The notes under the pieces were generated by a model. The model ran no database searches. It was given only the letters and a program-made list of their open reading frames with translations, and was not told where the DNA came from. 47,257 nt of DNA from an uncultured Bacilli bacterium (GTDB lineage Bacteria > Bacillota_I > Bacilli_A > RF39 > UBA660), in the NCBI GenBank assembly GCA_944358135.1, contig CALVQN010000002.1, positions 1 to 47,257 on the forward strand, written 5' to 3'. The position numbers and the translations under genes were made by a program. This document shows positions 12,166-33,123 of this stretch, piece by piece. Numbering within the stretch: position 1 is the first letter of the stretch; each line of letters opens with the position of its first letter.

Positions 12166-12188
12166 GCTTGAAATATAGCTTATCTTTT
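12161..12188 (+). terminator. Rho-independent terminator
   Basis: GATAAGCT (12161-12168) pairs with AGCTTATC (12177-12184), followed by TTTT. It overlaps the NUDIX stop codon. Confidence 0.6.
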
Positions 12189-12277
12189 ACATTTGTTTTA
12201 CATAAAATAGCGAACTCTACCTTTAGTATATTTCTTTTTTTAAAGTTTTTTATATAATAGGCATCAGAGGTGTGAAT

Positions 12278-14875: not shown

Positions 14876-15070
14876 TTAATCAGCATTGTCACCATAAACA
14901 TATATTTCTGTTACTTTACCAAGTAAAGCTTTATTATAGTGAAGTTCTTTAATATTTGTTGGCGCATCTTCTGCAATTCCTTCATAAACAACTTCCTTAT
15001 CATTTACAATAACTTTAATATTCATTTTTTTAAAACCATCAATTTTACCATATGTTTTCAAAAATAGCAC
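14876..15070 (-). CDS. Small hypothetical protein
   Basis: 61-64 codons. The most plausible start is the TTG at 15061, 8 nt after GAGGTG. No recognisable motif. Confidence 0.4.
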   Translation of the reverse strand: MLFLKTYGKIDGFKKMNIKVIVNDKEVVYEGIAEDAPTNIKELHYNKALLGKVTEIYVYGDNAD

Positions 15071-15170
15071 CTCTTTAATACTTTTATTTTATCACGGTCT
15101 AAACAGCTTTTAAATAAAAAATTGCATTTATTATAAAAATGTTGTAAAGTATTTAACTGAGGTGAAAAGC

Positions 15171-16258: not shown

Positions 16259-16444
16259 CAAAAAAATGGATGGCAAATTATAGCAAGATAAAAAATATAT
16301 TTTTACACTATTAATTCATTTAAAATTGCCCATGTTACATTGGTATATTAAGTTTTTCAATTTATTGAAATAAACCTGCTGTTTTTTAGTTAAAAATTTG
16401 ATACAATATAGTAGAAGTAAATCAAATTGAAACAGAGGGATGGT

Positions 16445-17516: not shown

Positions 17517-18920
17517 ATGTCTAATGGATATATTGTTGGGTGTGCATTAGTAATTTCAATATTAATTACTATTATGTTTAGTATCAAATCAAAGGTTACA
17601 AATATAGAAACAAAAATATTTAAGAAAATGCTTTTTGTTAATATTTTAGAATCCCTTATGACAAATCTGATTTTCATAGTCGCCATTACAATTGATTCTA
17701 CTTTTATTTTAAAAATTCTAAACCGAATCGATGTTATTTTAATTGTTGTTTGGTGTAGCTTAATGTTTTATTATATATATTCAATTACAAGCAAAAAAGT
17801 GGAACAACGTATTAAAAAGTTTGTTATCTTATTGGATATTATTATAGTTTTTTTTGCTTTATTTTTAGATGTTACCATTATTAATGAAAATGGGATTATG
17901 AACTCAACAGGAATGCTTACATATTTAGGTTTTATTGGTGCGAGTTTATATATAATATTTATGATTTTAACATTGATTATGATTAGAGATAAAAAAGATA
18001 ATTTAGATAAAAATAAATATATTCCACTATATTTTTTGATAGGTATGCTTATCTTAGTAGCAGTTTTAAGATTAATTATACCAGAGATTAATTTTATATC
18101 TATTGTTATTAGTTTAGTTGATATGATTATGATTTTTACAGTAGAGAATCCAGATGTAAAAATGCTTAATCAAGTACTACTAGCAAAAGAACAGGCTGAA
18201 AAGTCCAATAAAGTAAAATCGGATTTTTTGTCAAGTATGTCACATGAGATTAGAACTCCATTAAATGCCATTGTGGGGTTTAGTGAGTTAATAGATAGTG
18301 CCGAAACTTTAGAAGAAGCAAAAGAAAATAGTAAAGAAATTTTAGAAGCTTCTAATACATTATTAAATATGCTATCTAATGTAATTGATATTGCTCAAGT
18401 AGAAGTGGATAGTGTAGAAATAAAAGAAGTTTCATATGATTTAGAAAAAGAACTTAAAAATATATGTAGGTTGTACCAATATAAATTAGAAGAAAAACAT
18501 TTAGACTTAGATATAGATATAAATGTTCCCAAAATGCTAAAAGGGGATATTGATAAAATTAAAAGAATTGTTGCTAATTTATTAGATAATGCAATTAAAT
18601 ATACTGACATGGGCTATATCTCGCTAGTAGTTAATTCATCAATTAAGAATAACCTTTGTAATTTAGAAATACGTATACAAGACACAGGAATTGGTATTGA
18701 TCAGAAAGTAATAAATCACTTGTTTGAAAATTTTGTTAGATCTAGTGAACATAAGGATTCCAATAAATCAGGCATGGGGTTAGGATTATCAATTACCAAA
18801 AAACTTGTCGATTTAATGAATGGAAGTATTGAGTGTGAATCAAAAGAAGGTACAGGAACAACATTTATTGTTAGAATATCTCAAAAAGTAGGTGATGAAT
18901 CTGAAAGCATTAGTAGTTGA
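17517..18920 (+). CDS. Sensor histidine kinase with a polytopic membrane N-terminal domain
   Basis: Six to seven TM helices, then the H-box SHEIRTPLNAI, the N-box LLDNAIKYT, and G-boxes DTGIGI and GMGLGLSI. Confidence 0.85.
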   Translation: MSNGYIVGCALVISILITIMFSIKSKVTNIETKIFKKMLFVNILESLMTNLIFIVAITIDSTFILKILNRIDVILIVVWCSLMFYYIYSITSKKVEQRIKKFVILLDIIIVFFALFLDVTIINENGIMNSTGMLTYLGFIGASLYIIFMILTLIMIRDKKDNLDKNKYIPLYFLIGMLILVAVLRLIIPEINFISIVISLVDMIMIFTVENPDVKMLNQVLLAKEQAEKSNKVKSDFLSSMSHEIRTPLNAIVGFSELIDSAETLEEAKENSKEILEASNTLLNMLSNVIDIAQVEVDSVEIKEVSYDLEKELKNICRLYQYKLEEKHLDLDIDINVPKMLKGDIDKIKRIVANLLDNAIKYTDMGYISLVVNSSIKNNLCNLEIRIQDTGIGIDQKVINHLFENFVRSSEHKDSNKSGMGLGLSITKKLVDLMNGSIECESKEGTGTTFIVRISQKVGDESESISS

Positions 18921-19257
18921 TGATAGTTTAATCAATCTTAGAGTAGCTCAAAAATTGTTGGAACACTTAAATTTAGAAGTAGATACTGCCCTTAGTGGTA
19001 AAGAGTGCTTAGAAAAAGTTAAGAGTAATTCATATGATATTATTTTTATGGATATAATGATGCCTGAAATGGATGGCGTGCAAACATTTCAAAATTTAAA
19101 GTCAATAGAAGGTTTTTCTACTCCGGTTGTTTCTTTAACAGCGGACGCAAAAACTGGAGCAAAAGAAAGATACCTAGGCTTAGGGTTTAGTGACTACATT
19201 TCTAAACCGATTGATTTAAAATTATTAGAGAATATTATTAAAAAGTTCTCAAATTAA
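18895..19257 (+). CDS. Stand-alone receiver-domain response regulator (CheY-like, no output domain)
   Basis: LVVDDS, phospho-acceptor FMDIMMPEMDG, SLTAD and SKP motifs. It overlaps the kinase stop by about 26 nt. Confidence 0.8.
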   Translation: MNLKALVVDDSLINLRVAQKLLEHLNLEVDTALSGKECLEKVKSNSYDIIFMDIMMPEMDGVQTFQNLKSIEGFSTPVVSLTADAKTGAKERYLGLGFSDYISKPIDLKLLENIIKKFSN

Positions 19258-19296: not shown

Positions 19297-19325
19297 ATTT
19301 GTCAACAGGAGGGGGATTTTTATAT

Positions 19326-19871
19326 ATGAAGGAAACAGAAAAAATTTATTTGGATCAAAAAGGATACCAACAATACTTGCAAGAAATTGAAGATTTAAAA
19401 GAAAGACTAAACGAGAATAGTAGGCAAAAATCATCTGCCTACACAAATGCTGTTGGGGATGGATGGCATGATAACTTTGAATTCGAAGAAGCAAAAAGAG
19501 AAGAATTTAAAATTATGGGATTACTTCGAGACAAAGTTGAAGGATTAAGTAGGATTGTGATTATAGATAAAAATGAAAAATCACAAAATGAAAACGATCT
19601 TGTGGATATTGACGATTATGTAAGTGTTTTATTATTAATGCCAGATGATGAAACAGAACATATGGTCTTTAGATTGGTTGCTTCGTTAAGTACCAATAGA
19701 GGCATAAAAGAAGTTTCTCTGAATAGTCCAATGGGAAAAGCAGTATATGGTAAAAAAGTAGGAGAAACTGGAAAATATCAAGTAAATGGAAATGCTTTTT
19801 TAGTTCAAATACTGGCTAAATCAAAAGATTTAACTGAAGATTTGGAAAATAATAATTCATTAAAAAGGTAA
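19326..19871 (+). CDS. GreA/GreB-family transcript cleavage factor paralog
   Basis: ATG at 19326 after GGAGGGGG. N-terminal coiled coil with tip GDGWHDNFEFEEAK (compare GreA GDLxENAEYxAAK). C-terminal SPMGKAVYGKKVGE (compare SPIARALIGKxVGD). Confidence 0.65.
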   Translation: MKETEKIYLDQKGYQQYLQEIEDLKERLNENSRQKSSAYTNAVGDGWHDNFEFEEAKREEFKIMGLLRDKVEGLSRIVIIDKNEKSQNENDLVDIDDYVSVLLLMPDDETEHMVFRLVASLSTNRGIKEVSLNSPMGKAVYGKKVGETGKYQVNGNAFLVQILAKSKDLTEDLENNNSLKR

Positions 19872-19873
19872 GT

Positions 19874-20764
19874 ATGAATTTTAATTATTTAGTAAATTTA
19901 AATTTATACAGAACATTTTACTTTGTCGCCACTTCTTCGTCTTTTAAGGAGGCATCAGTAAAATTATATATGTCTCAACCTGCAATAAGTAAGCAGATAA
20001 AAGAATTGGAAGATATTTTAGGTGTGAAACTATTTACTAGGTTTAATAAAGGAATCGAGCTAACAAAAATAGGTAGAATTCTTTTTAACCAATTAGAGAA
20101 TGCTAATTTTTATCTAAAAGAATCTATTAATCAGATAGAACAAATTAAAGACTTAAAAGCGGGAGAATTAATTATAGGATGTCCATCTCATATTACTTCG
20201 TTTTATTTATTAGATAAAATAGAAAAATTTAAAACGAATTATGGTAATGTTGAGATAAAAGTGGTCAATGGTTCTACGAGCGAAATGCTAAATGATTTAT
20301 ATCATCATAAAATAGATTTTATGATTGATTTTGATCCAATAGATAATAAATACCATGATTTTAAGATTGAAGTTCTAGATTATTATGATACAGTATTAAT
20401 TGCTAATTATAAATTTGATAAAAAAATAAAGAATTTAAATGATCTAATTGATCAGAATTTTGTTTTACCTTTGCCAAGGAGTTCTGTACGAAAGAACTTT
20501 GAAAAAATATTATTAAATAATGGCATTTCAATTAACGTAGGATTGGATTTAGATACAACTGATCTAATAATTTCGGCTGTAAAAAGAAATTTTGGTATCG
20601 GATATGTAATAAAAGAATCTGTAAAGGAAGAATTAAAGCAAAAGTCTATAAAAGAATTAAAATTAAATTATGACCTTCCAAAATTAAAATTAAATTTAGT
20701 ATATAATGAAAATTTTTTAACACCCTCAGCAAAAGTGTTTATTGATAACTATATTAGAGTTTAA
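19874..20764 (+). CDS. LysR-family transcriptional regulator
   Basis: N-terminal wHTH F..VA...SF..AS..L.MSQPAISKQIKELE..LGVKLF.R, followed by a substrate-binding domain of about 200 aa. Confidence 0.85.
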   Translation: MNFNYLVNLNLYRTFYFVATSSSFKEASVKLYMSQPAISKQIKELEDILGVKLFTRFNKGIELTKIGRILFNQLENANFYLKESINQIEQIKDLKAGELIIGCPSHITSFYLLDKIEKFKTNYGNVEIKVVNGSTSEMLNDLYHHKIDFMIDFDPIDNKYHDFKIEVLDYYDTVLIANYKFDKKIKNLNDLIDQNFVLPLPRSSVRKNFEKILLNNGISINVGLDLDTTDLIISAVKRNFGIGYVIKESVKEELKQKSIKELKLNYDLPKLKLNLVYNENFLTPSAKVFIDNYIRV

Positions 20765-20776
20765 CAATTTTTAAAA

Positions 20777-20813
20777 AAGATGTCAAACCTTAAGTGTTAG
20801 ACATCTTTTTTTT
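20777..20813 (+). terminator. Rho-independent terminator after lysR
   Basis: AAGATGTC (20777-20784) pairs with GACATCTT (20800-20807), followed by a T run. Confidence 0.6.
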
Positions 20814-20824
20814 ACTATAACCTC

Positions 20825-20860
20825 CAGTTATTTCAAATTAAAAAACAGTTATTTGAATTT
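20825..20860 (+). promoter_or_regulatory. Repeated candidate LysR-binding site upstream of the viperin operon
   Basis: CAGTTATTTCAAATT (20825-20839) and CAGTTATTTGAATTT (20846-20860) are direct repeats 21 nt apart. They also contain the inverted pair TTCAAAT/ATTTGAA. The second copy overlaps the -35. Confidence 0.35.
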
Positions 20861-20881
20861 ATATCAATATAAAGGTATAAT
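20853..20881 (+). promoter_or_regulatory. SigA-type promoter of the viperin-centred operon
   Basis: TTGAAT (20853-20858), a 17-nt spacer, then TATAAT (20876-20881), about 20 nt upstream of the HAD gene start. Confidence 0.45.
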
Positions 20882-20901
20882 GTTTCTAGTAGGTGATTGT
20901 G

Positions 20902-21765
20902 ATGTCCAAAATTAAATTGATAGCAATTGATATTGGTGGGACTTTAATTGATGATAACAATAATATTCCGCCGGAAAATATTGAAATATTAAAAAAAATG
21001 AAGAAGCAAGGCATAAAAATAGCACTAGTTACTGCAAGAATGCTATCCTCAACAAAATACATTAGTAACGTAATTGAATGTGATTATGGAGTATATGGAA
21101 ATGGAAGCAATATCATAGACTTAAACAATAACAAAGTGCTTTATTTAGAAAAGTTATCAAATAGAAATTTAGAAAGTTTGGTAAATTTTGGAAAAAAACA
21201 AAATTTATATATTCACTTAAATCAAGTTTTTCAAGAAGTATCAGATCAAAAAAAATATTTTGCTTTAAAGCATATTCTTTTAAACAAAAAATATCCTAGT
21301 AATCTTCAAAGCAATGTAGAAGTTGTTTCGAGTTTAAAAGATTACATTAATAATACCGATAATATTGTAAAATTAGTTTTTGTATCAAAGAAGAATTTAG
21401 ATGTAATAAAAGAAAAAATATCAAAAGAGTTTCCAGACATTTTCATAACTGAATATAATACGAATCTAAAAGAAACTGCAATTAATGAGATTATTAATTA
21501 CATTGAGATAGGAGCGAAAGCTACAACTAAAGCAGAAGGTGTTAAAAAATTGGCAAATATACTCAATTTAAATCAAGAGGAGATTCTAGTTATCGGAGAT
21601 GGAAACAACGATATAGAAATGTTTAAAGCATTTAAGAATTCAGGTTGTTTAAAAAATGGAACATCAGAAGCTAAAGTTAATGCTAATTATGTTTCAGAAA
21701 AAAACAATAATGAAGGCGGATTAAGTGAAATAATAGAATATTATATTAATAAAGAGGAGGAGTAA
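20902..21765 (+). CDS. HAD-IIB (Cof-type) phosphatase-like protein with an atypical motif I (DIGGT)
   Basis: KLIAIDIGGTLID (motif I), VTAR (motif II region) and GDGNNDIEMF (motif IV). Cap-domain size is typical of Cof. ATG at 20902 after AGGTGA. Confidence 0.75.
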   Translation: MSKIKLIAIDIGGTLIDDNNNIPPENIEILKKMKKQGIKIALVTARMLSSTKYISNVIECDYGVYGNGSNIIDLNNNKVLYLEKLSNRNLESLVNFGKKQNLYIHLNQVFQEVSDQKKYFALKHILLNKKYPSNLQSNVEVVSSLKDYINNTDNIVKLVFVSKKNLDVIKEKISKEFPDIFITEYNTNLKETAINEIINYIEIGAKATTKAEGVKKLANILNLNQEEILVIGDGNNDIEMFKAFKNSGCLKNGTSEAKVNANYVSEKNNNEGGLSEIIEYYINKEEE

Positions 21766-21771
21766 TGAATA

Positions 21772-22380
21772 ATGAAAATAGCGATTGAGGGTATGGATGG
21801 AGTTGGAAAAACCACTTTAGCAAAAAAATTGGCTCAAGAATATAATTTTAAATATATTGAAAAGCCACTAATGGACTTTTTTGAAATTGATAATTTAGAT
21901 ACTAAAGCAATTTATGGCCAAATTTGTGATAAATTATATCAATTTAATAGCGAAATTCCTAAAGCTTGGTTTTTCGGACTAGGTAATGTCTATACATTTT
22001 TAAAATATAAGGATGAAAATATAATTATTGACAGGCATTTTGCCTCAAATTATTTTTGGAATGGAACAGAAGAAACAAATTGCATTTTTAAAACTATGAT
22101 TGATCTTGTAGGTGTGCCGGATCTTACTATTGTACTGTATGCTTCCATTGAAACTAGAAATAATAGATTAAAAAGAAGGGATGCTTTAGATAGAGATATA
22201 TACGATCCTGAAAAACAAGTATTGGGAAGTGATAAAATGATAAATTTTTTAGAGAATTTTCACATCCCTTATGTTCTCATTAATACTGAAGGAAAAACAA
22301 AAGAAGAGGTTTTTAATGAATCCAAATTAATTATAGATGGATTACAATTAGATAGTTTTTCAAGAAAACGTAGGAGGTAA
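21772..22380 (+). CDS. Thymidylate-kinase-fold nucleoside/nucleotide monophosphate kinase
   Basis: P-loop IEGMDGVGKTT, DRHFASNY (compare TMPK DRY..S) and lid-like RLKRRD. The RBS is embedded in the end of the HAD gene. Confidence 0.65.
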   Translation: MKIAIEGMDGVGKTTLAKKLAQEYNFKYIEKPLMDFFEIDNLDTKAIYGQICDKLYQFNSEIPKAWFFGLGNVYTFLKYKDENIIIDRHFASNYFWNGTEETNCIFKTMIDLVGVPDLTIVLYASIETRNNRLKRRDALDRDIYDPEKQVLGSDKMINFLENFHIPYVLINTEGKTKEEVFNESKLIIDGLQLDSFSRKRRR

Positions 22381-22381
22381 A

Positions 22382-23095
22382 ATGTTACAGTTTTTGGGAA
22401 TAGGTGGTGCTTTTTCAGTTGATCTAGGAAATACATCCGCATTTTATAAAAAAGAGAATGAATTATTTTTATTGGATTGTGGTGAAGATGTCTTTGGCAA
22501 TATATTGAAAAACCATTTATTAGAAGGAGTCACTAAAATTAATATTCTTATTACTCATTTTCATAGTGATCATGTTGGTAGTTTAGGTACTTTGGTATTT
22601 TACTGTGATGCAAGCAATTTAGAGGAAATTAATATTGTTTTTCCAAATAGAGAAAAATTGGTTGAATTAATTAGGCAGTTTGGTATACAAAATTGTAATA
22701 TTAATATCTATACACCGAAAGAGTTCGCTAGATTAAAAATTAAAGAATATCGTCAAGAACATGATGTGATTGAGGCTTATGGGTATATAATAAAATTGGA
22801 TGGAAAAACAATTTATTATTCTGGAGATACTAAATCTCTTCCTGATGAAGTTTTCGCTCTTTTGATTAAAGGAAAAATAGATTATTTTTTTCAAGATGTT
22901 AGATTAAAACAAAACCCATATCATTTATCATTAGAAGAATTAGAAAGTAAAATACCATTTAATTTAAGAAAACAAATTAATTGTATGCACTTTGTATCAG
23001 AAGCAGAAATCAACGAAGTTACAGAACATGGTTTTTCGAGAGTTAGAAGGTTTGAAAGCGAGGAAAAAAATGGAAATATTAAGTCCAGCAAGTAA
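22382..23095 (+). CDS. MBL-fold metallo-hydrolase (RNase Z / PhnP-like phosphodiesterase subgroup)
   Basis: LGIGGAF...LLDCGE...ILITHFHSDHVGSLG (HxHxDH), with later YSGDT and MHF motifs. Its start lies 1 nt after the kinase stop. Confidence 0.7.
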   Translation: MLQFLGIGGAFSVDLGNTSAFYKKENELFLLDCGEDVFGNILKNHLLEGVTKINILITHFHSDHVGSLGTLVFYCDASNLEEINIVFPNREKLVELIRQFGIQNCNINIYTPKEFARLKIKEYRQEHDVIEAYGYIIKLDGKTIYYSGDTKSLPDEVFALLIKGKIDYFFQDVRLKQNPYHLSLEELESKIPFNLRKQINCMHFVSEAEINEVTEHGFSRVRRFESEEKNGNIKSSK

Positions 23096-25151
23096 TATGA
23101 GACATATACAGGTTGCAATTGATAATAAGGCAAATGCTGTATATGGAGGTTTGAAAAATTGGAATGCTAGAAATAAGGCAATTAATTTTACAGAAGCCGA
23201 ATATAATCAATTAATAACAATGTTACATCAAAATAATATAAAATTCTTTTTGACTTTAAATATTCTAATGCTTGATAATGAAATTGAAGAAGTAATAACA
23301 TTTTTGAAGAAAAATTCTTTGCCCGATGCTTTCATAGTCACAGATATTGGATTAATACAGGTATTAAAGCAAGAATTTCCTAATGTTCCATTACATTTTT
23401 CAACACAATTTGGTTGTCATTGTATTGACGATGTTAATTTTGTAAAGGCTATTGGCGGAACAAGGGCTATTTTATCTAGGGAACTTACATTAAAAGAAGT
23501 GGAAAAAATCAGAAATAATACAGATATTGAGTTAGAGTGCTTTATTTGGGGATCTCAATGTCTAAGTTTTTCTGGGTTATGTTTTTTTGGCAGTTTGATC
23601 AATGGCGGAAGTGGTAATAGGGGGAAATGTATCACTTTATGCAGAGATGTTTACTCGGTTAATGAAAATGGTCATTTGTTATATGTTCCAGATATGGATT
23701 GTATAAATTTAATAAGTAAATTAGATAAAATAGATTGCCTAAAATTGGAGGGACGTCGTAGAGATCCTAAAGAAATTGAAAAAATTTTACAACAAATTTC
23801 TAATAAAGAAACATCGGACCAAAATGTAGGATATTTATATGGAACAAATAGTAAGGATAATAATCAATATGAACTAATTAATTCTAGAATTAAGCCAGTA
23901 TTTCAAGCAAATGAACTAAAGAATCGAGACGACTATGATGTGTTTATAGAATACCAAAATGGTAAGCCAATTAGATTTTCGAATAATTATAATAATCCAA
24001 ATGTATTTTATGTATACTCAGAAATTAAAAGGAAATATAGCTTGACTAAAAAGAATATTAGTATCGATTTAACTTTTGATGAGAATGTTGTATCTGAAGT
24101 ATTATATGTCAATTATAAAGGGGATGGACATACATTTTTTAGAGATAATAATAGTAATGATGATCAAATTGTGTTAGATTTTGATGAATTGATTCGGCGA
24201 TTATCTTTAAATGATAAAATAAATATTTATAAAATAAAATTCAAAAAGGGGCAATATGATAAATATCTAGTCAGTAAATCTATGTATGATAAAATGATAA
24301 ATTATATTCTAGATGATTGTAAAAATACACGTGAAACTTATCCAACAATTCCTTTAAAACTTAATAAAATATTATTAGAAACTCAACAGGAAGAGATTTT
24401 AACCGAATTTGTTAAAGATAAATTCGTAAAAGTGATATATGATATAAGTACAATAGATAAACTAAAAAATATTCAAAATATTATAGATCAATATGGTGAT
24501 AAGATAATTTATAAATTACCTTTATTCAATTGGGATAGTGAAGATGTTATACCTTATATTTCTAAGCTTGAAAACAAAGAAATTATGTTTACTAGAATGT
24601 CCCAAATATATCTATCAAAAAATATTCATTTTAAAAAGAAATATGCGGATTATACAATATACGTTTGGAATAAAGAAAGTTTAAATTTTTTAAAAAATAT
24701 GGGAATTCAAGAGTTTACTTTATCACCAGAATTAGATTATGAAACTAATATGAAAATTTATAATGCTGAAAAAGTACAAGCCCTGTTGTGTGGCAAATTT
24801 CCTCTTGTTTATACAAGAAATTGCTTTAAAGAGGTTTTTAATTGTAACAATTGTATTAGAGAACAATCATGCTTAAAAACAATAGTAAATGTAGACAAAG
24901 GAATAGATTTTGAAATATTGTGTAATACTGATTATCGTTATGTATTAAGTAAAATCCCTGTGTTAAATGATTATTCAAGATTTAAAATAGGAGAAAATGT
25001 AAACTTTAGGTATATTGCACTTGGCGATAATGCAGAAAACATTAGAAAAACATTAAATATTTTAAAAGAAGTTAATTTTTATGAAAAATTAAAAGCAAAT
25101 GATTATTGGAAAGATTCTTATGAATGTAACATTATAGAAAGTAAAAGTTAG
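23070..25151 (+). CDS. U32-family protein (RlhA/TrhP/UbiU-UbiV-type putative Fe-S hydroxylase), apparently with two U32-like modules
   Basis: The ATG at 23070 (RBS GAGGAAAAAAA) gives MEILSPASN....AI...ANAVYGG, the canonical U32 N-terminus. The Cys cluster is E.FIWGSQCLSFSGLCFFGS....GSGNRGKCITLCR. The C-terminal half repeats a similar pattern (LSPELDYE....LLCGKFPLVYTRNCF...CNNC). It overlaps the MBL gene by 26 nt. Confidence 0.75.
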   Translation: MEILSPASNMRHIQVAIDNKANAVYGGLKNWNARNKAINFTEAEYNQLITMLHQNNIKFFLTLNILMLDNEIEEVITFLKKNSLPDAFIVTDIGLIQVLKQEFPNVPLHFSTQFGCHCIDDVNFVKAIGGTRAILSRELTLKEVEKIRNNTDIELECFIWGSQCLSFSGLCFFGSLINGGSGNRGKCITLCRDVYSVNENGHLLYVPDMDCINLISKLDKIDCLKLEGRRRDPKEIEKILQQISNKETSDQNVGYLYGTNSKDNNQYELINSRIKPVFQANELKNRDDYDVFIEYQNGKPIRFSNNYNNPNVFYVYSEIKRKYSLTKKNISIDLTFDENVVSEVLYVNYKGDGHTFFRDNNSNDDQIVLDFDELIRRLSLNDKINIYKIKFKKGQYDKYLVSKSMYDKMINYILDDCKNTRETYPTIPLKLNKILLETQQEEILTEFVKDKFVKVIYDISTIDKLKNIQNIIDQYGDKIIYKLPLFNWDSEDVIPYISKLENKEIMFTRMSQIYLSKNIHFKKKYADYTIYVWNKESLNFLKNMGIQEFTLSPELDYETNMKIYNAEKVQALLCGKFPLVYTRNCFKEVFNCNNCIREQSCLKTIVNVDKGIDFEILCNTDYRYVLSKIPVLNDYSRFKIGENVNFRYIALGDNAENIRKTLNILKEVNFYEKLKANDYWKDSYECNIIESKS

Positions 25152-25160
25152 GAGGCTTCT

Positions 25161-25871
25161 ATGAAGACAAAAAGTATATGGGGAAATCCCCCAAAAAGAT
25201 TATATAAGTTAATGAAGATAGCCGAAAGGGATTTTGGCAAAAAGTATACAGCTTGTATTGTAGGTTGTTCTGATGGTAAATTTTTATTACCATTTGCTAG
25301 AAAGAAAATAAGAGTTGCCGGTTATGATATTGATGATATTGCCTTATATGGTGGTCAAAAATTATTTCCAATTGTTAATGAAAAAAATAAGTATCAATAT
25401 AATAAAAATTTTAAATCTCCAGAATATGAATTGGTTGAAAAAAGAGTATTAGGAATTACAGAAAGGTTAGAGATAGAAAATTTATCTGATTATGCTTTAA
25501 TTGAAAAAAGAGATTTTTATCGTAATGTACCCAAAAAGACTTTCGATGTAGTTTTTACTAGCTGTTCTTTACATTATACAGCTAATAAAGATTTTAGTTT
25601 GGAAGATAAAACAAAAAAATTACAAAGCATTGTTTCTGTTGGAGGATATTTATATATAGATTATATGATGGCAATAGAAGAAGGAGATTATACATTATAT
25701 CCGAAAGAAAAGTTCTATCGTAAGGGTGAAATTTTAAAATATTTTGATAATAATTGGAAAATTATTTCATGCAAAGAAAACAACCTTCCATCTTTTGAGG
25801 GAGCGCATGTTGATTGTGTTAAAGATCATTTTCATAGATTTGGATATCTATTGGCAAAGAGGATTAAATAA
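25161..25871 (+). CDS. Class I SAM-dependent methyltransferase (TehB-like)
   Basis: Motif I IVGCSDGK, acidic loop GYDID and motif IV region FDVVFTSCSLHY. RBS TTAGGAGG. Confidence 0.6.
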   Translation: MKTKSIWGNPPKRLYKLMKIAERDFGKKYTACIVGCSDGKFLLPFARKKIRVAGYDIDDIALYGGQKLFPIVNEKNKYQYNKNFKSPEYELVEKRVLGITERLEIENLSDYALIEKRDFYRNVPKKTFDVVFTSCSLHYTANKDFSLEDKTKKLQSIVSVGGYLYIDYMMAIEEGDYTLYPKEKFYRKGEILKYFDNNWKIISCKENNLPSFEGAHVDCVKDHFHRFGYLLAKRIK

Positions 25872-26641
25872 TGACGAAAGAAATTTGTTGGAATATTACC
25901 GCTTTATGTAATCAAAGTTGTAAGTACTGTCATCGATTTTTAAATCTTAAAAATTTATCTTATGAAGAAAATTTAAAAATTTTGTATAATTTAATTGATT
26001 CAGGTGTGGATCATATTACCTGGACAGGTGGTGAAGCTTTGATGTTAGATTATCTTGACGATTTATTGAAGATTTCTTATGATAAAGGAATTAAAAATAA
26101 ATTGATAACTAATGGCAGGCTTTTAACAAGAAACAGAATAGACAAAATCTATAAATACTTGGATAATATTACATTATCAATTGATTCAATAGATAATGTA
26201 ATAAACGAAGCATTAGGGCGAGGAAAGTATCATTTTAAAGAAATACAAAGCATTTTAGAATATATTACAGAAAAAAAGTATGACATAAAAATTAGTATTA
26301 ATACTGTAATATGCAAGCTTAATTTACACGATGTTTGCTCTTTATCCAATTTCTTAAATATTTATAATATTTGGAGTTGGAGAATTTTCAAATTTATGCC
26401 ATTACGAGAAAAAGCAATTACTAATAAGGAAATATTTGATATTTCAATGGATGAATTTTCTAAAATTGTCAATGAAATAAGGAAGAAAAGTTTAATTCAA
26501 AATATTGATACTAGGGTTGAAGAAGATATGGAGAAAAAATATGTTTTAATACTTGCCAATGGAGATATAGTAATTACAAATCAGGGAAAAGATGAAAAAG
26601 TTGGTAATGCTTTAATAGATCGCATGGAGAAATATATATGA
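25871..26641 (+). CDS. Viperin-like radical SAM enzyme (prokaryotic viperin candidate)
   Basis: CNQSCKYC (CxxxCxxC). It is collinear by eye with vertebrate viperin: N....CN..C.YC; ITWTGGEAL vs INFSGGEPF; LITNG.LL vs IVSNGSLI; LSIDSID..IN..LGRGK vs ISCDSFDEEVN.LIGRGQ; ISINTVI...N vs FKINSVIN..N; WRIFKFMP vs WKVFQCLL; KYVLIL vs SYLILD. TAATG overlap with the methyltransferase gene. Confidence 0.65.
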   Translation: MTKEICWNITALCNQSCKYCHRFLNLKNLSYEENLKILYNLIDSGVDHITWTGGEALMLDYLDDLLKISYDKGIKNKLITNGRLLTRNRIDKIYKYLDNITLSIDSIDNVINEALGRGKYHFKEIQSILEYITEKKYDIKISINTVICKLNLHDVCSLSNFLNIYNIWSWRIFKFMPLREKAITNKEIFDISMDEFSKIVNEIRKKSLIQNIDTRVEEDMEKKYVLILANGDIVITNQGKDEKVGNALIDRMEKYI

Positions 26642-27525
26642 TTGAATATACTGGAAAACAAGTTACAATAATGGCTTGTTCAGATTGCAATGCTAATTGT
26701 GAGCACTGTTATATATCATATACTGGAAATATGACAGGCAAATATTTATTGCAAATGTGTAGATTGTTTAAAAATAAATACAAAATAATTATAAATGGAA
26801 CAGAACCATTATTGCATGAAGATTATTTTGAAGCATTCAAATTATCTGATCAAAATCGAATTTTAACAAATGGTCTCATAATTAATAGTGATGAAACAAT
26901 ATTAGATAAAATAAAAGAAACTGGTATAAAAAATATAGCAATGTCTTATCATTTTGGAACCGAAATATCTACTGTGCCACAAGATATTGTTGAACAAGCT
27001 ATAATTAAAATAAAAAAACACAATTTAAATCCAGAATTAATGTGTACAATAACTGTAGAAAACTATGATAAATTAGATGATATATGTAAAAAGACAATTG
27101 ATTTAGAAGTTAATACGATAAGATTTTTTAATTGTATTAATACTGGAAAATGCGAATCAAATTGCTCAAATTTCTGCCTTGATGACGAACAAATTAATCA
27201 TTTTTTTGATCAATTAGTTGAGGTAAGAAAAAAATATGGCAAAGATATTTTAAAAATTAAAAGAAATGGTCTATTTGGTAAAGATAGTAATAATACTAAT
27301 TATAATTTTAAGTGTGTTGCCAGTATTGATGAAGTTGTTATCACACCAGATGGAAATGTTTATCCTTGTATATTTATGGCAAAACCGGGATTTGAAATTG
27401 GTCATTATGAGAATGGCAAAATTCTGCTTTATTATCAATTAGACAATAATGAGGATAGATGTATTGCACATGATATTTTTAATAAAAAAGAATATTCCTT
27501 TTCAAAAAAACTTGTAAAAAGGTAA
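26638..27525 (+). CDS. Second radical SAM enzyme with a Cys-rich SPASM/twitch-like C-terminal region
   Basis: CNANCEHC at residues 17-24, NGTEPLL and LTNG. C-terminal Cys clusters CINTGKCESNCSNFC and C........VITPDGNVYPC. ATGA overlap with the viperin-like gene. Confidence 0.7.
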   Translation: MIEYTGKQVTIMACSDCNANCEHCYISYTGNMTGKYLLQMCRLFKNKYKIIINGTEPLLHEDYFEAFKLSDQNRILTNGLIINSDETILDKIKETGIKNIAMSYHFGTEISTVPQDIVEQAIIKIKKHNLNPELMCTITVENYDKLDDICKKTIDLEVNTIRFFNCINTGKCESNCSNFCLDDEQINHFFDQLVEVRKKYGKDILKIKRNGLFGKDSNNTNYNFKCVASIDEVVITPDGNVYPCIFMAKPGFEIGHYENGKILLYYQLDNNEDRCIAHDIFNKKEYSFSKKLVKR

Positions 27526-27626
27526 ATTTTGTTGAATAATATAAGCATATTTAATGTATGAATTAGGAGGCTTTTAATAAATTTATAAAAATAATTCTAA
27601 AATTAAATTAAAAAAAATAAAATTCG

Positions 27627-27635
27627 TGATATAAT
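27627..27635 (+). promoter_or_regulatory. Possible internal extended -10 promoter for the CYTH gene pair
   Basis: TGATATAAT in the 135-bp gap after the second rSAM gene. There is no convincing -35. Confidence 0.3.
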
Positions 27636-27659
27636 TATTATAGTTAAAGGAGTGATTTT

Positions 27660-28451
27660 ATGCCAAAGATTGAAAAAGAAATAAAAGTACTTAATATAAA
27701 CGTTGATCAAGTACAAGATAAACTTAAAGAAATTGGAGCAAAAGCCAAAGGAAAAAAAGAACAAAAAATTTATGTTTATGACGTTCCAGCTTTATACTAT
27801 CGCTTTTTAGAAATAAGAGAATTAATTAACTCTTCTAATGGGTTACTGGTAGAAACAAATTTAAAGAAATTAGAAGTGTTATTATTAGAATACATTGATT
27901 TAGAAAACGAAGAAGAATTAGCCATAGAAAAAACTTTGCTTGGACTAAACGATTTGATGGATATATTAAAATTAGATATTGATAATATTAGAGAAATATT
28001 AAACAATCAAACGTTAGAGGCTAATATGAAGAAGTTTTTAATTAATCCTAATAAGTGGGTTAGACTTAGAAAAAGTAATGATAAAATTGAACTAACCACA
28101 AAACATATTCTCAATAAAAAGCATGGTGATTACCAGAACGTTTTGGAAACTGAAATTGAAGTATCTTCATTTGAAGAAGCAAATAACTTATTAGAAAGCA
28201 TTGGCATATGTAAAAGAAATTATCAAGAAAAAATAAGATATAGTTTCGTTTATAAGGATGCACAGATTGAAATAGATATTTGGCCTATGTTAGATCCATA
28301 TTTAGAAATTGAATGCGATAACAATAAAACTATCGAAGAAATTTTAGAAAAATTGAATTTAAAAGAAAATGAAATAGTTTCTACTAATACAGAGTCATTA
28401 TATAAAAGAAAAAATATTGATATTTTACAAATTTCTACATTAAAATTTTAG
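27660..28451 (+). CDS. CYTH-domain (triphosphate tunnel metalloenzyme; CyaB/ThTPase-like) protein with an internal insertion
   Basis: N-terminal ExExK (EKEIK). Later blocks: WVRLRK....ELT.KH, ETEIEV..FEEA...LE.IG, and K.R.SF......IEIDIWP.L.PYLEIE. About 75 extra residues lie between the first and second conserved blocks. Confidence 0.65.
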   Translation: MPKIEKEIKVLNINVDQVQDKLKEIGAKAKGKKEQKIYVYDVPALYYRFLEIRELINSSNGLLVETNLKKLEVLLLEYIDLENEEELAIEKTLLGLNDLMDILKLDIDNIREILNNQTLEANMKKFLINPNKWVRLRKSNDKIELTTKHILNKKHGDYQNVLETEIEVSSFEEANNLLESIGICKRNYQEKIRYSFVYKDAQIEIDIWPMLDPYLEIECDNNKTIEEILEKLNLKENEIVSTNTESLYKRKNIDILQISTLKF

Positions 28452-28459
28452 GGGGATTA

Positions 28460-29134
28460 ATGAAAAAGAAACAAACCATTTTATGCTCTAATGACGAGAA
28501 TATAAATAAATTGATAAGTACTTTGGCTAATAAAAAAGTTTTTAATCAACTTTTAGAAGTGTTAAGAAGTATAGGCACTTTTGATACAAAAATTGAGATT
28601 TTTAAAGACGAAAGTAATTTAGATGATGAAAAGATCAAAGTGTGGTGTTTTGATCAAAATAATAATATATTTGTTTTTTGCTTATTTTCAGATGCTAAGC
28701 AAGACTTCTTTAAAATTTCTGAAGAAAGAGATGATGGAGTCTCTGTTTACTATGACTTTTCTTTATCAAAAAATTATCCATTAAGTTCCAATAATATTAG
28801 TTTTATAAAATGTGAACACATTTACAATTTTAAGCATGGAAGATTAATAACTACTAGTGAAAATGATTATAACTTATTTATACAGAATGATAATATAATA
28901 AGCATCCATGTAGATCCCTTAGATCAGAAGTTGGATGTAGATATGCTTTTAAAAGGTTTAAATTCATGCGAAACAATCAATTTAAAAAATTATATCGAAA
29001 TAGTTAATTCAATAATTACATTTCATCATTTAAACATTAATTATATTAAAGTTAGTATAGTAAGTAAATTTCAAGTTGTTAATGAATTTAAGATAAACTT
29101 TGAACCAGTACATAAAGAGACGATCAATTTGTAA
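28460..29134 (+). CDS. Hypothetical protein, last gene of the viperin-associated operon
   Basis: 224 aa. RBS GGGGGA. No TM segment and no motif I can recognise. Confidence 0.5.
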   Translation: MKKKQTILCSNDENINKLISTLANKKVFNQLLEVLRSIGTFDTKIEIFKDESNLDDEKIKVWCFDQNNNIFVFCLFSDAKQDFFKISEERDDGVSVYYDFSLSKNYPLSSNNISFIKCEHIYNFKHGRLITTSENDYNLFIQNDNIISIHVDPLDQKLDVDMLLKGLNSCETINLKNYIEIVNSIITFHHLNINYIKVSIVSKFQVVNEFKINFEPVHKETINL

Positions 29135-29465: not shown

Positions 29466-29539
29466 TGGTGCTGAATGACTGAATTGAACAGTCCTCTGAT
29501 GCTTACCATGCATCCGTTTTACCACTAAACTAAATCAGC
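29466..29539 (-). tRNA. tRNA-Thr (anticodon GGU)
   Basis: Hand-folded 74-nt cloverleaf: acceptor GCTGATT/ATTCAGC (one U-U mismatch at 6:67), D arm GTTT-AGTGGTA-AAAC, anticodon arm GATGC-AT GGT AA-GCATC, variable loop AGAG, T arm GACTG-TTCAATT-CAGTC, discriminator A, encoded CCA. Confidence 0.8.
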
Positions 29540-30760: not shown

Positions 30761-30822
30761 TCTCTTTTCCTTTTCTATGATTTGTAGTATAATACTTTTA
30801 GTTTATGTACGGGAGGGAAACT

Positions 30823-33123
30823 ATGAAATTTAAAATATCACCAAAAGACTTTTTAATGTTTTGTTTATATTGCATTTTATTATTATATTTATGTGCTATC
30901 GCTGTTTTAAATTTCTCATCTTTTATCAATGAAGGTGAATTTTATGGATTACTTCCCTTTGAAGCTTTTACAGGAGAATACATAGGCCTTACATTATTCA
31001 TGTTTGTTGTCGCTTTAATTCTTATTTTTACTAGTGTATCTTCTTATATTTTTAATAAAGAAAAAGGAAAAGGTTTTGGTCTAAAATTTGGGGAAAAGCA
31101 AGAAAGTGGTTATGCTAGATGGGCAACAGATAAAGAGATTAAAAATGATACAAATATTGAACGTGTTGATCCAAAAGCAGATACTTTAAATGCCGCAGGT
31201 ATCCCTTTAATTAATAATGGCAAAGAAATATGGGTTGATAATGGCGAATATCATAACTTAGTAATAGGTTCAACTGGTTCAGGTAAAACACAAACCATAG
31301 TTAAACCAATGGTAAACCTTCTTGCCAAAAAAGGAGAATCAATGATTATCACTGACCCTAAAGGTGAGATTTATAAATATGCAGCATCTGCTCTAAAAGA
31401 GCGTGGATATAAAATCATTGTCTTAAACTTCAGAGAACCAGCTCATGGTAACGCTTGGAATCCGTTAACGCTACCTTACAGATATTACAAAGAGGGAAAT
31501 ACTGATAAATCAACAGAATTACTAGATGACGTAGCCCTAAATATTTTATATGACCAATCAAAGAAAAGTAATGACTCTGATTTCTGGGAAAAAAGTGCAG
31601 CTGATTATTTCTCAGGTTTAGCTTTAGGCTTATTTTATGATGCCAATGAAAAAGAAGTAAACTTAAATAGTATTAATTATATGTCAAGTGTAGGGGAAGA
31701 ACGTTATGCAACTAGTAATTATATTAAGGAATACTTTAATTTAAAAGGACCAGAATCAAGCCCATACATCTTCGCTTCTAATACAATAAATGCTCCAAAT
31801 GAAACAAAGGGTGGTATTTTATCTACATTTAGACAAAAAATTCGTCTTTTCTCATCAAGAGAAAGTTTAAGTGAAATGCTAGCTTACAGTGATTTTAACA
31901 TGCAAGATATTGGAAGAGAAAAAACAGCAGTATTCATGATTATTCATGACGAAAAGAAAACATATCACTCATTAATGACAATATTTATTAAGCAATGTTA
32001 TGAAACTTTAATTGATGTTGCTCAAGAAAATGGGGGAAAACTACCATTTAGAACAAACTTTATATTAGATGAATTTGCCAATATGCCACCACTTAAAGAT
32101 GTAGACTCTATGGTTAGTGCAGCCCGTTCAAGAGACATCAGATTTACCTTTATTATTCAAAACTTTGCGCAGTTAAATGATGTATATGGTAAAGAAGTAG
32201 CAGAGATTATCAAAGGAAACTGTGGTAACTTAGTATACTTAATTTCAACAGAATTAGCAGCTTTAGAAGAAATATCAAAAATGTGTGGAGAGGTAAAATC
32301 AAAAGAAAAAGACAAAACGGCCTCAACACCACTTGTAACAGTATCTGACTTACAAAAATTAAAACTATTTCAAGCGATCATTATTCGTTTACGTATGAAT
32401 CCATTCAAAACTAAATTAGAACCTGACTTTAAAATGGATTGGGGAATAAAACGTGAAGAAGCTGAATACCCAAATAGAGAAATAAAGAAAATAGAATTAT
32501 TTGATTTAAAGAAATTTGTTACTGAAGAAAAGAGAAAACAGATGATGAGCAATCTTGAAAATAGTGGTAAAGAGCCAAGTCCATTTAGTAATAATTTTGG
32601 GAATCCTTTTACTTCTGGAGGCATGATGAATCCATTTGGCAATACTAAACCAAATGAATCTTTATTTAATACAGGAAGTCCATTAGGAGTTACACCATCT
32701 TCCCAAAACTCTTCACCATTTAGTTCAAATCCAATGTTTAACAAACCAATGAGTAGTTTATCAGATATGGATATCGACCAAATGATGAAAGATATTGATC
32801 GAAGATTAAAAGAATTAGATGAAGAAGAAGAAAGACAAAAGAAAGAGATGGAAAAAGCGAATACTATAGGAAAACCTACAGAACAAATTATAGAAAGTCC
32901 AAAAGAAGAAGCACCAATTGAAACATTAAATACACCAAGTAATATTCAAGAAACCAAAATTGAAGAATTACCAAAAGAAACTGAATCAGAAGTAAAAACA
33001 ACTCCAGCATCCCCAATAAACAAAGAAAATAAACCCAAAATAAATGTAGATGCTGATAGTATTATTGTCAATGACAGTGGAATCACAGATGATGAATTCT
33101 TTGATGATTTCTTTGGAGAATGA
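30823..33123 (+). CDS. Type IV secretion coupling protein (VirD4/TraG/TcpA-like ATPase) with a long low-complexity C-terminal tail
   Basis: ATG at 30823 after GGGAGGGA. Two N-terminal TM helices, Walker A GSTGSGKTQT and Walker B FILDEFANM. The C-terminal region of about 195 aa is N/P/S/E-rich and ends DDEFFDDFFGE. Confidence 0.8.
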   Translation: MKFKISPKDFLMFCLYCILLLYLCAIAVLNFSSFINEGEFYGLLPFEAFTGEYIGLTLFMFVVALILIFTSVSSYIFNKEKGKGFGLKFGEKQESGYARWATDKEIKNDTNIERVDPKADTLNAAGIPLINNGKEIWVDNGEYHNLVIGSTGSGKTQTIVKPMVNLLAKKGESMIITDPKGEIYKYAASALKERGYKIIVLNFREPAHGNAWNPLTLPYRYYKEGNTDKSTELLDDVALNILYDQSKKSNDSDFWEKSAADYFSGLALGLFYDANEKEVNLNSINYMSSVGEERYATSNYIKEYFNLKGPESSPYIFASNTINAPNETKGGILSTFRQKIRLFSSRESLSEMLAYSDFNMQDIGREKTAVFMIIHDEKKTYHSLMTIFIKQCYETLIDVAQENGGKLPFRTNFILDEFANMPPLKDVDSMVSAARSRDIRFTFIIQNFAQLNDVYGKEVAEIIKGNCGNLVYLISTELAALEEISKMCGEVKSKEKDKTASTPLVTVSDLQKLKLFQAIIIRLRMNPFKTKLEPDFKMDWGIKREEAEYPNREIKKIELFDLKKFVTEEKRKQMMSNLENSGKEPSPFSNNFGNPFTSGGMMNPFGNTKPNESLFNTGSPLGVTPSSQNSSPFSSNPMFNKPMSSLSDMDIDQMMKDIDRRLKELDEEEERQKKEMEKANTIGKPTEQIIESPKEEAPIETLNTPSNIQETKIEELPKETESEVKTTPASPINKENKPKINVDADSIIVNDSGITDDEFFDDFFGE

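Follow-up and report, generated by a model that had tools for sequence, protein, structure and literature searches.

Within a 47,257-nucleotide stretch of chromosomal DNA (26–27% GC) from an uncultured Bacilli bacterium (GenBank assembly GCA_944358135.1, contig CALVQN010000002.1, positions 1 to 47,257; the whole stretch is referred to here as the window), we identified a gene for a 693-amino-acid U32 protein with two U32 modules that is followed by a gene for an orphan methyltransferase-like protein, MT1. The linkage between the U32 and MT1 genes is strict, and their linkage to a gene for a pVip-like (prokaryotic viperin-like) radical S-adenosylmethionine (SAM) enzyme, Vip, is near-strict, usually together with genes for a CYTH protein and/or a nucleoside-monophosphate (NMP) kinase. 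The U32 protein is a new, divergent subfamily of the RlhA1/RlhA2 kind. We propose, with about an even chance of being right, that this long, RlhA-type protein acts on a free pyrimidine nucleotide or 3'-deoxy-3',4'-didehydro (ddh) nucleotide, carrying out an O2-independent hydroxylation at C5 that would be followed by O-methylation by MT1.

The longest open reading frame (ORF) around the U32 gene begins at a TTG at position 22992, and an ATG at position 23070 has a GAGGA upstream of it. Because of this GAGGA, and because 36 homologues of the U32 protein share the start MEILSPASN, we take the 693-amino-acid product to be correct. The ORF thus runs from 23070 to 25151. The 26-nucleotide overlap with the preceding metallo-β-lactamase (MBL) gene and the 9-nucleotide gap before the next gene, both given in an earlier note on this stretch, were borne out; the gap, which leads to MT1, contains a GGAGG. 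The same note had described a canonical U32 N-terminus and Cys motif. Consistent with this, the Pfam family Peptidase_U32 (PF01136) matches residues 71–239 with an E value of 8e-45 (153 bits against a cut-off of 22.4), and all of 37 orthologues keep the motif C164-x6-C171-x15-C187-x3-C191, which 86 of 87 family representatives also have; CX6CX15CX3/4C is the [4Fe-4S] motif of U32 proteins (Pelosi et al. 2019, PMC6747719). The N-terminal (N) module is 33% identical to the N-domain of Escherichia coli RlhA over 245 residues (E 3e-36). Its best match among NCBIfam models is TrhP, with 146 bits against a cut-off of 534 and over the N-terminal 200 residues only, and it scores 119 bits on UbiU (cut-off 440) and 43.8 bits on UbiV (cut-off 275). 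Judged by these scores, the N module is an equivalog of none of the three.

The C-terminal half of the protein is a true second U32 domain, with a resemblance far beyond chance. The U32-like pattern that the earlier note had read in this half was confirmed in particular by an hhalign comparison of the N and C modules using 87 diverse relatives (Prob 98.8, E 6.5e-17, 222 columns), and by the matches of a C-module hidden Markov model (HMM) to four U32 proteins of E. coli, namely TrhP (2e-16), UbiV (1e-15), the RlhA N-domain (1e-12) and UbiU (3e-9), the match to UbiV running through C180/C193/C197. Note that significance in the hhalign comparison was reached only once distant relatives were added; with close orthologues only (56–94% identical, effective number of sequences 1.6) the E value was 0.45, which is not significant, the register was right, and the segments aligned (117–172 with 533–586) were those that the note had named. 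Pfam returned no U32 match on the isolated C-terminal half (residues 240–693; three sub-ranges, E up to 10). A search of 1.84 billion representative proteins with a profile of the C-terminal half found 374 proteins. Among the matches listed, most correspond to the C-terminus of proteins of 550–850 amino acids, and the rest are short and are probably fragments or stand-alone U32 domains; one stand-alone match, of 318 amino acids, is itself a PF01136 protein. Moreover, in the more distant relatives Pfam shows two U32 stretches (PF01136 twice) together with DUF3656, and in about 50 of the proteins found the profile weakly re-matches the N-terminal U32 domain, always in the same register.

A full-length AlphaFold2 (AF2) model of the U32 protein (mean predicted local distance difference test score, pLDDT, 84; predicted template modelling score 0.87) has beta strands at residues 290–402, within the middle domain, and beta/alpha repeats from residue 434 on. 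Residues 431–693 modelled alone form a beta/alpha barrel (pLDDT 86.5), for which the sole near-full-length Foldseek match was 5d88, the only solved U32 structure (260 columns; the E value of 4.9e-3 is weak evidence taken alone), the other matches being generic partial TIM barrels. When the whole model was searched 5d88 again came out on top, the half that it matched not being indicated, and a phmmer search of the whole protein against PDB sequences gave spurious matches only. Thus, for the fold of the C-terminal half, on which the proposal in the earlier note had been made to depend, we found a modelled barrel that matches 5d88. The middle domain (residues 261–430) has homologues in the central parts of distant long U32 proteins, of which some are DUF3656-positive (hhalign Prob 98, E 4.7e-14), and its direct comparison with six Pfam-verified DUF3656 segments was not significant (E 0.24).

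The C module carries four Cys residues of its own, arranged as C585-x6-C592-x2-C595-x22-C618. In the 87 representatives C585 is kept in 86, C592 in 87, C595 in 74 and C618 in 69 (including 31 of the 31 closest); C686 is kept only among close orthologues. The hhalign comparison puts C585, C592 and C595 on C171, C187 and C191, so the C module, like UbiV, lacks the first Cys of the canonical motif, and the distal C618 is conserved. Because each U32 module has its own conserved Cys motif, two [4Fe-4S] sites per chain are likely, the one in the C module being predicted from its Cys residues.

The architecture is the known RlhA1-(DUF3656)-RlhA2 layout. RlhA (YdcP), the synthase of 5-hydroxycytidine (ho5C) 2501 in 23S rRNA, is a U32 protein with DUF3656 and clustered C-terminal Cys residues, in which C169, C176, C580 and C611 are essential, and about half of the RlhA1-subfamily proteins bear a second, C-terminal U32 motif, RlhA2a/b (Kimura et al. 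2017, PMC5727448); Pelosi et al. 2019 (PMC6747719) took RlhA1 and RlhA2 to be the two domains of a single protein. In E. coli RlhA, Cys residues occupy positions 169, 176, 192 and 196 and also 572, 580, 611 and 614. A BLASTP alignment of residues 521–629 of the window protein with RlhA 523–622 is weak (E 0.012) and sets C585, C592 and C618 opposite C572, C580 and C611, and with the broad C-module HMM a remnant can be seen at RlhA 529–588. The earlier note had suggested a fused version of a two-subunit system such as UbiU/UbiV. The analogy is reasonable, in that there are two modules, of which the C module is most UbiV-like and the N module resembles RlhA, TrhP and UbiU, but a novel fusion of UbiU and UbiV was rejected, since this layout has been known since 2017 (PMC5727448). 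A scan of IMG/VR viral contigs found no relatives of the U32 protein, and we therefore set aside an origin in phage DNA hypermodification.

MT1 belongs to an orphan family of 299 clusters in 5.8 billion proteins, whose members are called 'hypothetical' where they are named. Its description in the earlier note as a SAM methyltransferase is supported at the level of a class-I fold, in that 10 of 11 diverse MT1 members match class-I methyltransferase families in Pfam (best E 5e-8); the more specific label 'TehB-like' did not hold up, the NCBIfam TehB model giving 18 bits against a cut-off of 303. An invariant C-terminal motif, FE(G/A)AHVDCxxDHFHRFGY (residues 212–229), in which H216, D222, H223 and H225 occur in all lineages, may be a metal or substrate site foreign to ordinary class-I methyltransferases. 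In two separate lineages MT1 is fused in frame to Vip, giving MT1::Vip proteins of about 496–500 amino acids (L014 12877–14376 in that of the window; L019 10104–11594 and L020 2962–4452 in the other; L numbers denote individual loci).

The lineage of the window comprises 17 loci in 14 of 185,579 GTDB species, with the gene order GreA-like, LysR, HAD, kinase, MBL and/or a second GreA-like gene, U32, in some loci 3-deoxy-D-arabino-heptulosonate 7-phosphate (DAHP) synthase, MT1, Vip, and then, variably, a second radical SAM gene and a TehB-type methyltransferase gene before CYTH. Seven distant lineages, with U32 proteins from different clusters at 50% identity, were compared with it, and their gene orders are as follows.

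L019/L020: kinase, U32, MT1::Vip fusion, CYTH
L021/L022: Vip, U32, MT1, ATP-grasp, chorismate mutase-DAHP synthase fusion, CYTH, ATP-grasp, ABC exporter
L023: CYTH, Vip, U32, MT1, DAHP synthase
L025: MBL, PfkB, kinase, U32, MT1, Vip
L026: ATP-grasp, CYTH, Vip, U32, MT1
L027: NrdG, NrdD, kinase, U32, MT1 (contig ends)
L031: radical SAM, U32, MT1, kinase, B12-radical SAM, radical SAM, GreA-like

An MT1 homologue (E 1e-33 to 1e-102) stands directly after the U32 gene in all seven distant lineages, and MT1 is downstream of U32 in eight of eight lineages when that of the window is included, being adjacent except where DAHP synthase lies between the two in some window-lineage loci. Among the seven, Vip occurs in five, CYTH in four (L019, L021, L023 and L026) and the kinase in four (L019, L025, L027 and L031); L027, whose contig ends after MT1, and L031 have U32-MT1 without a clear pVip. 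A housekeeping-type, RlhA-like U32-DUF3656-U32 protein encoded beside sigma and mreBC genes (L030) has none of the cluster partners. With synteny across eight lineages we rejected a chance gene neighbourhood, and the pairing of a hydroxylase with a methyltransferase downstream of it, to which the earlier note had drawn attention, is likewise not due to chance.

Several further observations concern these loci. Some clusters lie on mobile-looking DNA with resolvase or relaxase genes, and the contexts of L019 and L031 are mobile or defence-like. Genes for the anaerobic ribonucleotide reductase NrdD and its activase NrdG are found directly upstream of kinase-U32-MT1 in L027 (1680–3904), and an NrdG-like activase gene precedes U32 in L031 (5011–5580), which hints that some versions act on deoxynucleotides. 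L010 has a cytidine-deaminase-like gene of blasticidin-S-deaminase size (15023–15391, - strand), a pyridoxal-phosphate-decarboxylase-like gene (16339–17283) and a small pyrophosphatase-like gene (18027–18374). Four contigs that carry a low-GC, Bacilli-type cluster (L008, L014, L015 and L017) are filed under Muribaculaceae or Bacteroides helcogenes metagenome-assembled genomes (MAGs), probably as binning errors.

In the window the cluster is a tightly packed row of genes on the + strand, from 19299 to 29134.

19299..19871, + strand: GreA/GreB-like paralogue, head of the cluster (NCBIfam GreA E 2.5e-17, below cut-off)
19874..20764, + strand: LysR-family regulator (Pfam HTH_1 and LysR_substrate), kept upstream of the operon in the window lineage
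20893..21765, + strand: Cof-type HAD-IIB phosphatase (Pfam Hydrolase_3 E 2.5e-45; TIGR00099 135 bits against a cut-off of 137)
21772..22380, + strand: nucleoside-monophosphate kinase of the viperin-associated (VakA / thymidylate-kinase) type (PADLOC VakA E 6.6e-16; Pfam Thymidylate_kin E 5e-12)
22382..23095, + strand: MBL-fold hydrolase, RNase Z / Apyc1-like phosphodiesterase (Pfam Lactamase_B_2 E 4e-14; Anti-Pycsar_Apyc1 sub-threshold)
23070..23849, + strand: U32 protein, N-terminal U32 module, residues 1–260 (PF01136 match)
23850..24359, + strand: U32 protein, beta-rich middle domain, residues 261–430, possibly a divergent DUF3656 (AF2, hhalign)
24360..25151, + strand: U32 protein, second U32 module, residues 431–693 (hhalign, module HMM, Foldseek)
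25161..25871, + strand: MT1, orphan class-I SAM-methyltransferase-like protein, 236 amino acids (sub-threshold Pfam methyltransferase matches)
25871..26641, + strand: Vip, viperin-like radical SAM enzyme, 256 amino acids, CNQSCKYC (PADLOC pVip match)
26638..27525, + strand: second radical SAM/SPASM enzyme, 295 amino acids, variable accessory (weak Pfam Radical_SAM and SPASM matches)
27660..28451, + strand: CYTH / triphosphate-tunnel-like protein, 263 amino acids (NCBIfam cyaB E 2e-5, below cut-off)
28460..29134, + strand: 224-amino-acid protein, occasional cluster member (no family match in Pfam or NCBIfam; homologues only in L009, as a fragment, and L010)

The stop codon of MT1 overlaps the start of Vip (TAATG), and the second radical SAM gene overlaps the Vip gene by 4 nucleotides. 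Vip has the radical SAM motif CNQSCKYC and matches the PADLOC profile for pVip 'associated with kinases' with an E value of 4.7e-45. Its best sequence matches in the PDB are viperins (about 5e-14), and MoaA and other radical SAM families score about 66–70 bits, against 134 bits for the NCBIfam viperin model viperin_w_prok. The PADLOC profiles also bear out what the earlier note had said of the neighbourhood, in that the U32 gene is associated with genes for a pVip-type enzyme and a VakA-type kinase; as a label for Vip itself, 'viperin' stands in so far as the protein is pVip-like by PADLOC and falls short at the cut-off of the NCBIfam viperin family.

The remaining members of the cluster vary to different degrees. 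The CYTH-like protein of the window scores 24.5 bits on cyaB (cut-off 57.95), its L010 homologue gives an E value of 5e-8, and that of L019 is a weak match to Pfam CYTH. The second radical SAM gene is intact in the window, L001, L004, L009 and L014, is reduced to a remnant of about 82 amino acids in L002/L003 and is absent from the other loci; that is, it is intact in about a third of the related loci, and others have a TehB-type methyltransferase gene there, or both, which suggests variable tailoring of the product. Some relatives have a GreA-like gene in place of the MBL gene or fused to it. The GreA-like copy before LysR is kept in related loci, and a second GreA-like copy lies between the kinase and U32 genes in L005, L006, L007, L009, L010, L012, L013, L015 and L016. 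A GreA-like paralogue is fused to the MBL hydrolase in L001 (8713–9969), and one is found again in the distant L031 (11772–12275). We speculate that a Gre factor may rescue the RNA polymerase of the producer by cleaving off an incorporated terminator, and would thus provide self-immunity.

The window also contains genes for PriA, a sigma factor, PBP2, UppS and VanY, and its nearest public relatives are MAGs of uncultured 'Bacilli bacterium' of animal gut origin. Directly upstream of the GreA-like gene, at 17517–19257, are genes for a membrane histidine kinase and an overlapping receiver-only response regulator in which no DNA-binding output domain was seen. A tRNA-Thr gene (GGT; 29466–29539, - strand), the sole match in Rfam, lies downstream, between the cluster and uppS; in L004, whose U32 protein is 92% identical, uppS likewise follows the CYTH gene. 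A TraG/VirD4-type coupling protein with a long, low-complexity C-terminal tail rich in Pro, Ser and Asn is encoded 1.7 kb downstream of the cluster (30805–33123), and the neighbours scanned yielded no further recognisable conjugation genes. Promoter and terminator scans of the window DNA, at 26% GC, were uninformative, promoter-like sites being no commoner than in shuffled sequence.

DAHP synthase genes recur in three lineages of the cluster. In L010 one lies directly after U32 (12027–12887) and scores above both NCBIfam cut-offs; L005, L009 and L014 have gaps of about 770 bp in this position, which probably contain that gene too, and in L001 it is split in two. In L023 a DAHP synthase gene follows MT1 (4447–5259), and in L021 a fusion of the enzyme with a type II chorismate mutase domain is encoded two genes after MT1 (12350–13396). 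Prephenate is needed by RlhA (PMC5727448) and is the O donor for UbiUV (PMC10990095). Because genes for DAHP synthase and chorismate mutase recur in the related clusters, a requirement of the U32 enzyme for prephenate is supported by independent genomics, and the gene arrangement fits a local supply of prephenate for it.

What the cluster might make can be approached from its known relatives. Viperin dehydrates CTP, and CMPK2-type kinases feed viperin. RlhA hydroxylates C5 of cytidine (PMC5727448) and TrhP C5 of uridine (Sakai et al. 2019, PMC6599085). It is because of this U32 chemistry, of what is known of viperin and its kinases, and of the gene context that we propose C5 hydroxylation of a free pyrimidine nucleotide. 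A nucleotide substrate is suggested because the cluster encodes pVip, VakA, CYTH, HAD and MBL enzymes and, in single loci, NrdDG (L027), PfkB (L025) and a cytidine-deaminase-like protein (L010), and a pyrimidine fits because of the last of these and of NrdDG. In the order that we favour, the VakA/CMPK2-like kinase would provide a pyrimidine nucleoside triphosphate (NTP), from which the pVip-like radical SAM enzyme would form the 3'-deoxy-3',4'-didehydro nucleotide. The U32 protein would be a 'long' Fe-S hydroxylase, with a catalytic N barrel holding one [4Fe-4S] cluster, a beta middle domain and a UbiV-like second barrel (in effect a UbiU-UbiV pair in one chain), from a subfamily that acts on a small nucleotide and not on ribosomal RNA; with the ddh-nucleotide or its precursor as substrate, it would hydroxylate C5 of the base without O2, using oxygen from prephenate. 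The new hydroxyl would then be converted into a methoxy group by MT1, the CYTH, HAD and MBL enzymes would trim or rearrange phosphates, and the product would be a base-modified chain terminator directed against phages or competitors. Its biological role could be defence, with the mobile contexts of L019 and L031 in mind, or that of a secreted antibiotic, with L021 and L026 in mind. We put forward tentatively, as a possibility that falls somewhat short of an even chance, the fuller view that U32-MT1-pVip-CYTH is an undescribed O2-independent pathway to a 5-hydroxy- or 5-methoxy-ddhC or -ddhU nucleotide with prephenate as O donor, that in some lineages this would be extended by ATP-grasp ligases to an exported peptidyl-nucleoside antibiotic, and that Gre paralogues would protect the RNA polymerase of the producer.

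A number of points weigh against this proposal. The U32-MT1 subfamily is known here from its sequences and gene context, and direct hydroxylase activity in vitro has so far been shown for no U32 protein (PMC10990095). DUF3656 (PF12392), the hallmark of the RlhA subfamily, was not matched by Pfam in the U32 protein. The MT1 sequence of the window scores below the gathering threshold on all Pfam methyltransferase families, and searches of the PDB with a single MT1 sequence and two profiles found no solved relative; the group that MT1 transfers may not be methyl, or its target may be N or C and not O. Vip, at 256 amino acids, stops about 30 profile positions before the C-terminus of the viperin model, on which it scores 134 bits against a cut-off of 180, so that Vip may be unable to form a ddh-nucleotide or to bind a triphosphate. 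Only some clusters have a DAHP synthase, and that of the window has none; the enzyme could provide a building block derived from shikimate instead of an O donor, and a supply of prephenate presupposes the rest of the shikimate pathway in these small-genome gut Bacilli.

Three other explanations were considered. U32 and MT1 could be an RNA-modification module that installs ho5C and 5-methoxycytidine (mo5C), or 5-hydroxyuridine (ho5U) and 5-methoxyuridine (mo5U), in rRNA or tRNA, after the manner of RlhA at C2501 of 23S rRNA and of TrhP1/TrhP2 with TrmR in Bacillus, with the viperin-like, kinase and phosphatase genes as mere neighbours. All characterised U32 enzymes that are directed at nucleic acids work on RNA polymers, the layout and C-terminal Cys residues match RlhA, and a hydroxylase paired with a methyltransferase follows the mo5U logic of yrrMNO/TrmR. 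We nevertheless find this explanation quite improbable: U32-MT1 travels with pVip, CYTH, NMP kinase, NrdDG, ATP-grasp ligases and ABC exporters across the eight lineages, sometimes on mobile-looking DNA, in two of them MT1 and the viperin-like enzyme form one polypeptide, and so small and patchy a family, with 14 GTDB species for the window lineage and 299 MT1 clusters, is unlike a housekeeping RNA modifier, the housekeeping RlhA-like relative in L030 being without the cluster partners. U32 and MT1 could also hydroxylate and O-methylate a shikimate-derived or other aromatic for a secreted natural product, after the logic of UbiU/V and UbiG, with DAHP synthase supplying the scaffold and the radical SAM enzyme catalysing a different chemistry. 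For this speak the genes for DAHP synthase or chorismate mutase in three lineages, the ATP-grasp ligases and ABC exporters of L021 and the ATP-grasp ligase of L026, the scores of the N module on UbiU (119 bits) and of the C module on UbiV, and the position of Vip below the viperin family cut-off. DAHP synthase, however, is missing from most clusters as well as from the window, whereas nucleotide enzymes (VakA-type kinase, CYTH, HAD, NrdDG, PfkB and cytidine-deaminase-like) are pervasive, and the nearest relatives of Vip are by a wide margin viperins, both by score and among PDB matches; we regard an aromatic substrate as distinctly unlikely.

The cluster could, finally, be an ordinary pVip-kinase defence system that makes plain ddhNTP, in which U32, MT1 and the other proteins are unrelated or regulatory, serving for example in detoxification or self-protection through modification of the host nucleotide pool. 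Both the pVip and VakA profiles match, the linkage of viperin to a kinase is well known, and the surroundings of L019 and L031 look mobile or defence-like. Set against this are the strict co-inheritance of U32, MT1 and Vip and the MT1::Vip fusions, which point to one pathway, the position of the window cluster amid chromosomal housekeeping genes and under a LysR regulator, and the retention of U32-MT1 without a clear pVip in L031 and, as far as its contig extends, in L027. We consider a plain pVip system unlikely, and modification of a free pyrimidine nucleotide by U32 and MT1 is the explanation that we prefer.

In the searchable literature we found no relevant paper that joins 'viperin' and 'U32' and no description of such a cluster, whether as viperin with U32, pVip with a methyltransferase, or U32 in a nucleoside gene cluster. 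A 2023 survey of viperins covers the linkage to kinases and fusions to triphosphatase/cyclase domains and does not mention U32 proteins or methyltransferases. The statement in the earlier note that C5-hydroxy or C5-methoxy decoration of a free pyrimidine (ddh)nucleotide had not been described agrees with these searches. The double U32 module is already known from RlhA1/RlhA2, and the multi-gene module around this U32 protein appears to be undescribed in the searchable literature. U32 'peptidases' are now regarded as anaerobic, prephenate-dependent hydroxylases that still await proof in vitro (PMC10990095), in part because of their known substrates, namely ribosome precursors, tRNA and membrane quinones. 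If our proposal is true, a soluble nucleotide substrate would make U32 hydroxylation directly testable, and the protein would be the first of the U32 hydroxylases with a substrate that is free and soluble. The known products of viperins are unmodified ddh-nucleotides, so a conserved tailoring set would reveal a chemically new class of natural chain terminators or nucleoside antibiotics made by gut anaerobes, which would interest antiviral chemists. Moreover, the recurrence of DAHP synthase and chorismate mutase beside U32 provides independent genomic support for the connection between U32 enzymes and prephenate.

Among known systems, RlhA is like the window protein in being a long U32 protein with an N-terminal CX6CX15CX3C motif, an intervening beta domain and a C-terminal U32-like region with aligning Cys residues, and dependence on Fe-S clusters and prephenate is probable here too. 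It differs in that the C module, complete here at 263 amino acids, is only a remnant in E. coli RlhA, in that DUF3656 is undetectable by Pfam here, and in that the gene does not stand alone but lies in a nucleotide-metabolite operon with pVip, kinase, MT1 and CYTH; the predicted substrate is a free nucleotide, whereas that of RlhA is a 50S assembly intermediate. The UbiU-UbiV heterodimer, which hydroxylates ubiquinone precursors anaerobically (PMC6747719, PMC10990095), likewise combines two U32 modules with a four-Cys [4Fe-4S] motif apiece. UbiU is resembled by the N module, and UbiV is by resemblance the best E. coli match of the C module; both UbiV and the C module lack the first Cys of the CX6C pair, and the C module probably recruits a distal one, as UbiV does. 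The ubiquinone pathway also follows hydroxylation with O-methylation. Here, in contrast, there is a single polypeptide with a middle domain that scores far below the UbiU and UbiV cut-offs, in a context of nucleotide metabolism without a UbiT-like lipid carrier or quinone genes.

The yrrMNO operon of Bacillus combines U32 genes with the SAM methyltransferase TrmR, which methylates the new hydroxyl (ho5U to mo5U). TrhP (YegQ) and TrhP1/TrhP2 (PMC6599085) resemble the window protein as prephenate-linked U32 hydroxylases of a pyrimidine C5. The window protein scores far below the TrhP cut-off, its partners are viperin, kinase and CYTH genes, and its substrate is probably not tRNA; MT1 matches no NCBIfam model of a tRNA-modifying methyltransferase (only TehB is hit), and TrmR and CmoB were not compared with it directly. 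The cluster is like known systems of pVip and a viperin-associated kinase, and like human viperin with CMPK2, in having a pVip-like enzyme and a VakA-type kinase of the thymidylate-kinase family in one operon, and the fusion of some eukaryotic viperins to a triphosphatase/cyclase domain parallels the CYTH gene found here. Known pVip systems consist of one or two genes and release unmodified ddhCTP, ddhGTP or ddhUTP, whereas here Vip is short and under the NCBIfam family threshold and is accompanied by four to seven further co-inherited enzymes (U32, MT1, CYTH, HAD, MBL and second radical SAM).

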